A stretch of DNA of 62,398 nucleotides, counting the filler, from Globobulimina sp. (taxonomy: Eukaryota): assembly GCA_003354225.1 (NCBI GenBank). It is 28 parts of 28 records of this genome, joined end to end, with 100 filler letters (N's around TTAATTAATTAA, not from the genome) between each part and the next. Parts side by side here need not be neighbours in the genome. Positions count along the whole stretch, not along the records: positions 31,264 to 33,395 come from PIVH01008748.1; 27 more parts are not named here. One strand, written 5' to 3'. The notes under the pieces were generated by a model. The model searched no databases, had not been told where the DNA came from, and saw nothing but the letters and a program-made list of their open reading frames with translations. Of this stretch, positions 31,264 to 43,610 are shown in pieces (the first letter of the stretch is position 1; each line of letters begins with the position of its first letter). The position numbers and the translations under genes were made by a program.

Positions 31264-33080
31264 ATTCAATATATTCCAATCGGAATTTTCTGCAAAAATC
31301 ATAGGTTTTAATGCTGCAAAATATTGATAGGTTACGTTAAAATTAATTATAATTTTCTTTTTTCTATCACAAAAATATGAGAATGATTTTTTCACATAGT
31401 CACTAAATTTATTATTCTCTTTTTTGTTTACTTTACATTGTATCAATTCATTTATAATAATAATATCATTTTGTTTAATATTAATATTAGCGGCAATTGT
31501 TTCTTTCAATTCCGACCCACTTAACATACACTCCAAGTAATATAACAATCTACAAAATCGTTTCAACGCTTGTTTTGTTTGCACCAATAAAATATTAAAA
31601 ACTCTTAAAGGATATCGCCCGCCAATCCATATTCTTTCATCTTCCGCAGGAAACGCTGAAATCCAGCTCGAGTCAAAACAGATTAGTCCTCTTCCATTGT
31701 AACTAAGTGATTGCTTCAATGCGATTACAATCCCAGTTGACTCCGCAAAACGTAATGCCACTGCAACCTGCATAGTAGTGGAGGTTGGCGCATTCAATCG
31801 AATTTGAAAAGATTCCATGAAAATCAATGGCATTCCACAGTAAAACGTAGCATTCTTATTCCTGGCTTTATTTATTTTAATACCGAAATATTCGATAGTT
31901 TCATATAGTAAACGTGCCCAATGCGCAAATTCTTTATTTCTGTTTTTAATGGAATTGACAGATTCTTTTTCGTATATTGCACGGAATGTAGCTGAGAAAT
32001 GGCGGCTTAATTTTGATAAATCAGTGTATAGAATAACTGACAATATATGCGGTGCATCAATAAATGAATGTTTTTTAATTTCGTAATGTAAGACACGATT
32101 TAAATTTGCAGCTCTTAATTTTTTTGCAGTCTTACTTTTACATTTCTTGCTTGCTTTTACTGTGACAGTATCGTAGACCAACTTTGATTCTTTAAAGATG
32201 CTATTTTGTAATATTTCTTGTTGAATATTTTCATATTTTGCTGCAACAAATAAATCTTTATATGTTAATATTTCATCACTTTCGTTGAGTGGATTTGTTT
32301 CTAATTCTGAATGAGTATTTATTTTATTTTTGTAATAGTCCCAATAATAAAATTTGTATCCAATTTTGAATACATTGTTATTTTCTAATTTTTCTTTCTC
32401 ATCGTCAAATGTTTCATGTTTTACTGTTAACAGTGGACATTTTAATATTATTAAGCAAATTGAATATAATTTTTATGTATACAACAAAACTCAAACAAAC
32501 CTTCATTGTTTACATCAGAATCATTCGTATTATCTGGTAATATGATATTAAATTTCTTAATACGATTAAACGTAATACGATTTGATTTCGATTGTTGTTG
32601 TAATATGGAAGTAATTTTAATATCATTATCATCCGATTCATCTGCATCCAAATCACTTGATTTACTTTCTATACTTTTTGGTTTTGATTTTGATAATGTC
32701 CTTAATCTGACTCCGGTATCAAATGAATGAAATAAAAATGTATGAATTTCATCCATAAGATTTTGAGCAAATTGTAATTCTGCATCAGATGTAATATTTT
32801 GATTTATTTCCGATCCATAATTTGTTTGTTTCATTCTATTCAATGAATGACAACTTAATACGTTACAATCAGTAATCAACGAATTCCAATTTAATTCGAT
32901 ATATTCATAAATATTATCCAATTGATTGTTATGTTGGATAACAATATGCGCAAAATCATCTAAAATGCGTGGATATGTTTTATTGGTAAATATTAACAAC
33001 TTATGTATATCTTTTATATTTTGGTAATATAATAAGCAATGTATAATTCGTGTTAATGCTGTACAATGCTGTATTACTTT
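31264..33080 (-). CDS. Large protein with an N-terminal His/Cys helical domain and a C-terminal ADP-ribosyltransferase-like domain; partial at both ends
   Basis: Intron 32424-32500 joins the ORFs in frame. Motifs: GYKFYYW, HILSVILYTD, FSATFR, WARLLYETIEYFG, FYCG, PTSTT, VALRFA, GIVI, WISAFPAEDERIWIGG. Confidence 0.75.
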
Positions 33081-33747
33081 TCATTTCTTGCAGTGATGGA
33101 GATACACATAGTATAACATATATGTCACCATAGTAACATCAATTGGTTGCCAGGGGTTACCAGTAGGTCACTGCCAATAGTGGTCACCATTTAGATCTGG
33201 TCACTATGATAGCTGGTTAAACAATCATTACTGTGTCACTGATCACACTTAGACTTAGAGGAAACAGCAGCTAGAGTGTCTATCACAAGGCACACACTTT
33301 ACTGAAGAAGATATTTAATGTAAAGCCTACCATGGCTTTCATGCAATTTTCCTGAAACTAGAATGGATTATTAAAATGAAATTACATAATTTATANNNNN
33401 NNNNNNNNNNNNNNNNNNNNNNNNNNNNNNNNNNNNNNNTTAATTAATTAANNNNNNNNNNNNNNNNNNNNNNNNNNNNNNNNNNNNNNNNNNNNCACTT
33501 TACTATATCTTTCAAATAACATTGATTATAATAATTTTATTTTTTTATTTATTCAATTTATTAATATTGTAATAATTTTATGCTTATAATTTATTTACAT
33601 TTACAGTTGGCGCGTACAGCATTGTCAGACATAAAAATTAAAACTTTTAAGTTATTATCTTCAAAGTCCAGCTGTGACTTAATAAAGCTTATCGCGAAGC
33701 AAATATAGTAAACACATCCACACGAATTTGTAATATAACCATTAATC

Positions 33748-42421: not shown

Positions 42422-43403
42422 CGGCTAATTTGTATTTATTTTCCAATTTGAATTCCTTTTTTTGCAGTAATAATTTATTCACTTTGCTTGATTTCCGGCG
42501 TGGCTGCACTGTGACGGATGTCTTTGTGCCTTATATATGTACAACATTTATCATAATGGGTAGTTTAAAACATTTTTATTGTCCAATTACAACTTAACTC
42601 GTCTCGATGTGTGTGGAGAATTTATTATTTTTCCATCTTTTGTGTCCCCGCAGCGAAATTAAGAACTTTTTTTTGTGTTTAATGTGGTTTTTAATGGCAA
42701 TAATTTGTTCATCTAAATAGAATTCAGAAGAAGATAATTTTGAGATTAATTTTTCTTCTCTGTTCGTGTGAATATCTTTTAATATTTCAATAATTTCATT
42801 TGCATCGTTTTTGTTATTCGCGCACCGCATCGCAGTGATAATATCATCTCTGTCGCCGAAATTAAATAATAATAATTGATTTAGCATTTCTTGATCAACT
42901 GATTCGTTTTTTGGATCTGACTGGATTGTATTTGGTGTGTTTGTATATGATATCGACCGAAATCCGGCATCGAAGCTATGAGCAAAATGTATATGAATGG
43001 AGGACAAATATTTTAGGTAAAATGATAATTCTTTGTCGAGAATGTGTGGCATTTGTAAATTATTTTTGTTGTGCGTTATATAGTCGTTACATGTGTTGAT
43101 GTTACATTTCACGATTTGATTATTTATAAAATTAATATTTTGAATATTTTTGGAATGGTTTGAATGCGATAAATGTTTGATGAGTATGTGGTGATAATCA
43201 TTTATTAAATGTTTATAAGATGTCAACAATTCTGTGATTTTTTTCGTTTTTCTTGATGTATTTGTTGTTTTGTTGATGTTGTGATATGTATCAAGAACGC
43301 TTGCAATACGTTCTAAGGATGCACATTTTTTTAAATGATTGCAATTGTTGGAATAATCCGACGTTAGAATTTGGTAATTTTCTGGTTTGTGTGAAGCTGA
43401 CAT
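42422..43403 (-). CDS. N-terminal part of a protein related to the 31264-33080 gene, with a UBA-like insert; 3' partial
   Basis: C.SLERI..VL..YH...LINDYHHIL.KH...C....C...IH.HF.HSFDAGFR, then MLNQLLLFNFG.RDDII.AM. A probable intron after TH-IET leaves the frame open to the contig edge. Confidence 0.65.
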
Positions 43404-43610
43404 GTGCTCTCAACTAAAAAAGAATTAGTGGTTTTGTGTCTTATTTCGAATAACATTCTCAGTTGCCCAGATTTGTCTTCTTCTACAACTATAAGCCATG
43501 CTCGTTTGTGGGAGAAAAGATTTATATTTAAGCGGTTTTTAATAGTATTCTGGCAAACAAATTAAAATGAATACACACAAATTTATGGCTATATTCATCA
43601 CAAAGACCGA

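Follow-up and report, generated by a model that had tools for sequence, protein, structure and literature searches.

ADP-ribosyltransferase (ART) clades are defined by their H-Y-E or R-S-E triads. A gene of the foraminiferan Globobulimina sp. shows the motif order of an R-S-E ART with cysteine at the position of the first arginine, which raises the question of what such a domain is and whether it could still act on NAD. The window analysed here is a stretch of 62,398 nucleotides in which 28 separate contigs of ~2.13 kb, sorted by size, are joined by N44-linker-N44 spacers. ORFs that enter the spacers are cut and, as the 28 contigs are separate records, adjoining genes in the stretch are not linked. 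The target gene lies on the minus strand of a 2.1-kb contig (G000:C8748) from a 70-Mb assembly of 48,370 contigs.

The motifs ILYTD, FYCG, PTSTT, VA-x-x-FA, GIVI and WISAFPAEDER were all located in a single open minus-strand frame in the R-S-E ART order with STT and E-x-E intact, as the original prediction had described. The exons of the gene are two minus-strand frames joined across a 77-nt phase-1 GT-AG intron (32424..32500, minus strand), and the closest paralogue is interrupted by an intron at this position too. Contigs of runs X2 and X7, which come from two studies, join 32423 to 32501 with exactly 77 bases skipped, and run X1 reads across 32424-32500 without mismatch, the intron being kept. 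Spliced transcripts would be the simplest source of the intron-less X2 and X7 contigs. The GT-AG borders, the paralogue intron and the skipping in X2 and X7 support the proposal of a spliceosomal intron in a host-encoded, nuclear gene.

The upstream end of the gene differs from what had been proposed, which was a coding sequence starting at 33080. Positions 33076..33395, which are non-coding for the target gene, have zero cover in all four runs, are single copy in the assembly and show no homology to the continuous ORF of the paralogue. Both X2 and X7 were observed to diverge at 33075 into different letters, and the loose end of X7 past this point is in frame and, read by eye, matches the N-terminus of the paralogue. 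Since X2 and X7 leave the contig at 33075 and X7 continues in frame, the stop found just upstream of the visible frame lies outside the gene. The 33075/33076 junction is probably an assembly chimera; an intron or an insertion would be the other explanations.

The upstream exon encodes an N-terminal Cys/His/Asp-rich, all-helical domain (32676..33074, minus strand), a candidate metal-binding domain that was delimited by a 63-copy alignment and a model and that starts on the far side of the 33075 junction. The remainder of this exon is an acidic low-complexity linker (32501..32675, minus strand), which is shorter than that of most relatives and is without the E-Y-D-x-D helical segment common to many of them. 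The downstream exon, also on the minus strand, contains an ARTC fold of the ART2.2/HopU1/Tre1 kind with an N-terminal helical lobe (31561..32379; model residues 1-273 against 1gxy_A), followed by a helical post-ART region (31264..31560) that is the start of a C-terminal domain of ~200 residues and ends at the contig end.

The fold was assigned from a 372-residue model of exon 2 built on 30 sequences (mean pLDDT 84.4). Its best structural match in a search of 48,161 chains was ART2.2 (1gxy_A; Z 13.3, rmsd 3.7, 193 aligned), with further matches to Tre1 entry 6drh (Z 11.1), HopU1 (10.8), XopAI (10.7) and ExoS (9.4). Every one of the 21 rows with Z of at least 5 (VIA) was an ART fold, and PARP-type folds were found at Z 2.6-4.4. 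Foldseek also placed ART2.2 at the top rank, with E 1.4e-3 and nothing at 0.001 or better, and ESM Atlas features gave 0.96 to PF01129/PF03496 clusters. The ART fold proposed for this gene is therefore the one that the structure searches return. At the level of sequence families, Pfam gave none for the target, and none of 30 close members matched an ART family at the curated cut-off; L043, a distant family member, passes PF01129. The ART domain was undetected in the PDB by sequence profile, where the N-domain and ART searches gave weak unrelated matches, the best being YNG1 (E 0.008, one helix pair).

The link to Pfam-detectable ARTs was made by aligning a profile of 102 family domains to one of 12 such ARTs from the same genome (13 matches, L043 being left out as a member). 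This profile-profile alignment (probability 97.9, E 3.7e-13) puts the Cys/His column on the arginine of Y-R-G, PTSTT on STS and E-D-E on E-x-E, and one of the genome's own Y-R-G ARTs aligns its Y-R-G with that of Vis in the PDB. The Cys codon at 31837-31839 thus falls in the beta-1 Arg column, in agreement with the predicted cysteine at the Arg position. Judged from the model, the target domain has the ARTC (cholera-toxin-clade, R-S-E) fold, and it is filed as an ARTC-fold variant outside R-S-E because the defining beta-1 arginine is missing.

Other elements of the site were found to be in place. The cysteine belongs to the beta-1 motif F-Y-C-G (31834..31845), where it occupies the arom-R arginine column, and the STS-equivalent motif P-T-S-T-T (31774..31788) has a serine in 151 of 151 copies. 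The ARTT loop W-I-S-A-F-P-A-E-D-E-R (31633..31665), with glutamates at 31642-31644 and 31636-31638, fits X-X-aromatic-X-X-E-X-E; the general pattern is given as X-X-aromatic-X-X-E/Q-X-E in the accessible part of PMC8120803. The alpha-2/alpha-3 motif ILYTD...SATFR (31981..32034) has its arginine in 124 of the 151 copies (7 gaps) and in 41 of 42 covered Cys-type copies. From the profile alignment, and from the 'aliph-R' NAD-binding motif as described in the available text of PMC6829252, the last Arg of SATFR would be the expected site of that motif. A family-specific helix motif, K-x-R-[N/H] (31936..31947), has Arg in 121 and Lys in 12 of 151 copies and is a candidate substitute charge for the beta-1 Arg. 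All these motifs are on the minus strand. Just before the ARTT loop, five successive codons (about 31678-31692; P0001 residues 260-264) all carry non-synonymous differences in the near-identical X6 and X2 copies, as read from 40 of 102 difference rows; a fast-evolving substrate loop or gene conversion is possible there.

The identity of the beta-1 residue was surveyed over 205 loci, from which domain hits of more than 40 bits spanning beta-1 to STS gave 170 domains, 151 of them distinct, in 140 clusters at 80% identity; the copies are 25-50% identical to one another. This census is biased to its three queries (one each of Cys, His and Arg type), with most loci reached through the Cys query and the His and Arg shares slightly less well sampled. 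Position beta-1 was observed to be His in 72 of the 151 copies, Cys in 44, Arg in 13, Thr in 9, Tyr in 5, Val and Ser in 3 each, and Ile and Gln in 1 each, so that His and Cys dominate, as anticipated from a variable first residue. The following glycine is found in 140 copies and a phenylalanine after STS in 126. The two glutamates of E-x-E occur together in 38 of 40 Cys-type copies that cover them, in 65 of 68 of the His type and in 6 of 7 of the Arg type, and conservation of E-x-E is thereby upheld. Among 165 outside domains from the best 150 of 4,644 hits, Cys was found in 85, His in 34, Thr in 18, Ser in 16 and Arg in 3, with the two glutamates in 155 and 157.

Trees place the cysteine within the history of the family. 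With FastTree (102 rows), the target falls in a 45-row clade with support 97, in which 37 rows are Cys and 8 have T, S, V or I in its place. In an IQ-TREE subset of 68 rows (22 His, 15 Cys, all Arg-type own rows and sampled outside rows), a branch with SH-aLRT 92 sets 22 Cys rows apart, own and outside sequences being interleaved among them, and these rows are nested with His-type rows (support 94); a 7-row Arg-type (Y-R-G) subclade lies within the family (SH-aLRT 98). In these sequence trees Cys is nested among His-type rows (support 92 and 94, unstarred), and an order from Arg to His is not implied, the Arg, His and His+Cys groups forming a fork at the root. Because the Cys rows form one clade in which own and outside sequences interleave, the cysteine is taken to be ancestral to this clade rather than the product of recent decay. 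The T, S, V and I replacements in 8 of 45 rows favour a small residue over thiol chemistry, and a role for the cysteine as catalytic nucleophile was considered unlikely on the same replacements. A cleft thiol by which activity in the Cys clade would respond to oxygen, sulfide or nitric oxide could serve species of low-oxygen sediment; such a switch is improbable.

The interchange of small residues at beta-1 is also what would be expected if the Cys clade, and perhaps the His-type copies too, were NAD-blind pseudo-ARTs that bind Arg peptides or ADP-ribosylated partners and serve as receptors, decoys or regulators of active Arg-type copies. XopAI offers a precedent: in the accessible part of PMC6829252 it is described as an ARTC fold with F-T-G at beta-1 and an intact ARTT, in which an Arg peptide is bound in place of NAD and arom-R, aliph-R and STS are lost. 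XopAI ranks within the first five structural matches of the target (Z 10.7), Arg is kept in just 13 of the 151 sampled copies, and hundreds of diverse copies would fit a receptor repertoire. However, the aliph-R and STS elements that XopAI has also lost, on the same partial account (PMC6829252), are retained here in 124 and 151 of 151 copies, and an invariant Ser with both Glu across deep divergence would be unusual for dead enzymes. We regard this reading as a real but minority possibility, somewhat doubtful on balance.

The family itself was found to be large. Matches listed from the assembly lie on at least 260 distinct contigs; three single-protein searches each gave at least 150 matches, with 150 of 474-514 candidates scored, and a search with the N-domain, in which 150 of 193 candidates were scored, yielded 101 matches. 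A public profile search against 1.84 billion representatives returned 4,644 hits at E <=0.001, 1,781 of them at 1e-30, as 50%-identity clusters. All 21 named relatives among 30 looked up are foraminifera (17 Bolivina argentea, 3 Nonionella stella and 1 Globobulimina), and the sole single-sequence relative is a EukProt protein labelled Globobulimina turgida with 72% identity over 58% of the region. Searches of viral contigs gave 11 pattern matches and no confirmed relative, and those of prokaryote genomes gave 82 matches and no confirmed relative with a single-protein query that reaches close relatives only. Among named relatives the family appears to be confined to foraminifera, and the lineage-specific expansion that the original prediction put forward is well founded in the own contigs, the public clusters and the named relatives. 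No published account of the family was found in the foraminiferal ADP-ribosyltransferase literature covered, most subscription papers and supplements falling outside that coverage, where a mention is possible. A recurrent match, PMC4245714, deals in its accessible part with PARP systems, and PMC12957317, as far as its text is available, concerns a diphtheria-type Crinkler ART that is unrelated to this family. The foraminiferal H/C-S-E family thus appears to be undescribed.

It could be objected that decaying copies, alleles or contamination imitate a family, as the assembly is fragmented and could contain more than one species, the 33075 junction is likely chimeric, and internal stops occur in a few matches. 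Against this, the 151 copies form 140 clusters at 80% identity, the intron is spliced out and the same clades are found in other foraminifera. The dN/dS ratios also stand against it. Compared with its nearest paralogue, the target has a dN/dS of 0.11 in the ART core (Nei-Gojobori, 167 codons; dN 0.10, dS 0.95), with ~0.44 for the N-domain and ~0.25 for the post-ART part, and all 11 listed pairs (at least 62% identity, shared-word prefilter) are below 1, from 0.11 to 0.59. The target gene is under purifying selection, and imitation of a family is barely credible.

Two other contigs of the window also carry related sequences. A gene on contig 5 (8938..10830, plus strand) has the layout Fn3 - ART-like (H-W-E) - SAM - SAM and matches the family ART profile at E 2.9e-6, with His at beta-1 and Trp in the column where relatives hold the STS serine. 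A further copy of the N-terminal domain lies at 42597..43409 (minus strand; N-domain profile E 1.5e-20), any ART part of which is off the contig. A short helical stretch after this N-domain presumably resembles UBA, with Pfam UBA unmatched there; UBA is carried by four outside Arg-type members. The count of three in 28 contigs touching ART-associated families holds at these E-values. The contig-5 gene, which the original prediction had named alongside the target, belongs to a distant, small and separate subfamily (9 matches; relatives of both Arg and His type), one relative of which falls outside the main family in IQ-TREE.

Some further loci were noted in the genome. L035, L040, L041 and L042 form a second ART-like group, in which beta-1 reads Y-T-G or Y-S-G and the upstream regions are rich in Cys and His, and as this group sits outside the main family in the tree, it suggests that the beta-1 arginine was lost more than once. 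At L031, L038 and L039, Pfam-detectable ARTs lie beside or are fused to ubiquitin-like or ankyrin-like repeats, as read by eye. At L005:105-584 a short ORF, whose N-terminus resembles that of type IV pilins (also by eye), overlaps a family member encoded on the opposite strand at its 3' end, which suggests bacterial DNA joined on to this contig.

In 63 own copies of the N-domain, D40, H43, H48, C70, C75, R80, D108, H111 and H116 are each conserved at 90% or more, and from these residue types the domain likely binds metal. Its model is a helical bundle (pLDDT 88.6), for which the best Z among 48,161 chains was 3.8 and Foldseek gave nothing under E 6, blanks that fall short of proving a new fold; no ESM Atlas match was found, nor any Pfam match in the 63 members. 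The modelled domain is put forward as a candidate new metal-binding fold. It lies upstream of the first ART domain in 112 of 120 testable outside proteins, these being the ones, out of 212, with at least 300 residues before the first ART domain (top hits, biased to the query layout). The idea of swappable partner domains is accordingly mostly not borne out: as a rule the N-domain, ART and C-terminal domain form a fixed core, to which accessory domains are added in a minority.

An accessory Pfam hit of any kind was observed in 5 of 30, 8 of 56 and 5 of 59 proteins of three sets, the domains including CAP-Gly, UBA, Ras/Roc + IBR, PITH, PH, WH1, MYND, Fn3 and ricin-B. One set of 52 had PITH in 7, UBA-type domains in 4 and PF03366, which we take to be YEATS, in 2. 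Several long relatives have two or three ART domains. As an example, the outside proteins P0009, P0012 and P0014 (2,400-3,000 residues) have three, of which the first two are degenerate at beta-1 and the last is His-type; pseudo- and putative active domains would then occur within one chain. The accessory domains also bear on the suggestion of a toxin-like function in prey handling. Secreted toxins directed at prey or competitors would be in keeping with the bacterial effectors that dominate the fold neighbours and with the ricin-B lectin domain in one relative, and the family expansion was counted toward this reading as well. However, most of the accessory domains are of cytosolic or nuclear types, a crude hydropathy test detected a hydrophobic N-terminus in 2 of 85 relatives with the N-domain (the target's own start lies beyond the assembled frame), and the Pfam hits of relatives revealed no delivery domain. 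Because of the cytosolic domains and apparently rare signal peptides, a secreted prey toxin is very unlikely, and the toxin-like suggestion finds little support.

Taken with the intact site, these features favour the reading that the family consists of intracellular arginine-directed mono-ARTs with a remodelled NAD (phosphate) site, to which we give about an even chance. This reading rests on the loss of only the beta-1 Arg, a PARP-like H-G in about half of the sampled copies and the conserved K-x-R; every other recognisable NAD-site element is retained in the target. According to the accessible text of PMC8120803, NAD is positioned in ARTC enzymes by the beta-1 Arg, the pocket is stabilised by STS and catalysis falls to the last Glu, and E-x-E, with a Glu at -2, is associated with arginine acceptor specificity in that of PMC3102197. 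On this reading, NAD would be held through the beta-1 Gly, the STS serine and the aromatic residue after STS, with its phosphates gripped by the alpha-3 Arg and perhaps by the family-specific K-x-R; the second Glu would be the catalyst and the first would select arginine. In much of the family the beta-1 residue may have become His, as in the PARP-type H-G motif, and in one clade it would then have turned into a small residue (Cys, at times Thr, Ser or Val), with NAD affinity or regulation probably altered. The putative metal-binding N-domain may serve in regulation or recruitment, PITH, UBA, MYND, PH, WH1, CAP-Gly and Ras domains could target some copies to the proteasome, to membranes or to the cytoskeleton, and the ADP-ribose mark would be removed by ARH hydrolases; ARH (PF03747) has 24 matches on 21 contigs of the genome, the origin of which may include bacterial DNA. 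Doubt on the arginine-directed reading comes from the replacements in 8 of 45 clade members, which amount to tolerance at a normally essential site, and from XopAI, judged NAD-unable with Thr at the beta-1 position where Arg positions NAD.

The proteins may also bind NAD but chiefly hydrolyse it as glycohydrolases or generate ADP-ribose signals; alternatively, their targets could be nucleic acids or a residue other than arginine. In other ARTs an altered triad goes with altered chemistry, for example RES phosphorolysis in the available part of PMC9503650, and NAD hydrolysis is described for rat ART2, likewise from a source available in part. Such cases change the Ser or Glu positions or carry Q-x-E, whereas E-x-E is kept here, and we consider this reading unlikely.

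The purpose of arginine-directed activity would be cell-autonomous defence or internal signalling, at about even odds; eukaryotic ART domains have been proposed for defence in the accessible part of PMC7955679, and arginine-specific ARTs seemed to be lacking in unicellular eukaryotes in 2010, as far as the available text of PMC3102197 goes. In its boldest and tentative form, our proposal is a large intracellular foraminiferal network of arginine ADP-ribosylation, an H-S-E + C-S-E branch that bridges both textbook signatures, is active without the beta-1 Arg and has each member gated by the new-fold metal domain, with a possible redox-sensitive thiol in the Cys clade. The thousands of Pfam-missed H-S-E and C-S-E sequences allow a test of whether the beta-1 arginine is required, and natural Arg-, His- and Cys-type paralogues coexist in one genome. 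Should they prove active, a major group of marine protists would possess an extensive signalling or immune system that has gone unrecognised; inactive, they would make up a pseudo-ART receptor repertoire of unusual size. The N-domain is a candidate new metal-binding fold in either case.

Rotifers also have expanded ART repertoires. The eukaryotic PF01129/PF03496 clusters of the ESM Atlas, in which rotifers and haptophytes are commonest, are detected by Pfam, unlike the target. With ART2.2 (PDB 1gxy; PF01129), HopU1, Tre1 and ExoS-type R-S-ExE enzymes the target shares the fold with its helical lobe, the STS serine, E-x-E and the alpha-3 Arg. It differs from the ART2.2 type in that its family has Cys or His in place of Arg at beta-1, extra N- and C-terminal domains and hundreds of paralogues, and in that the target has no Pfam ART match and no signal peptide was seen. 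From H-Y-E (PARP/diphtheria-type) enzymes the family borrows in appearance the beta-1 His, present in 72 of 151 copies and mostly as aromatic-H-G, but its fold, STS serine and E-x-E are ARTC-type and the second position is Ser in 151 of 151. The LRRC9 pseudo-ART family is, in the accessible part of PMC7955679, PARP-like with its catalytic residues lost. XopAI from Xanthomonas (PDB 6k94; PMC6829252, as far as its text is accessible) has in common with the target an ARTC fold, a neutral beta-1 residue and an intact ARTT, but it has lost aliph-R and STS, whereas the foraminiferal family keeps both elements and is eukaryotic, multidomain and multicopy.
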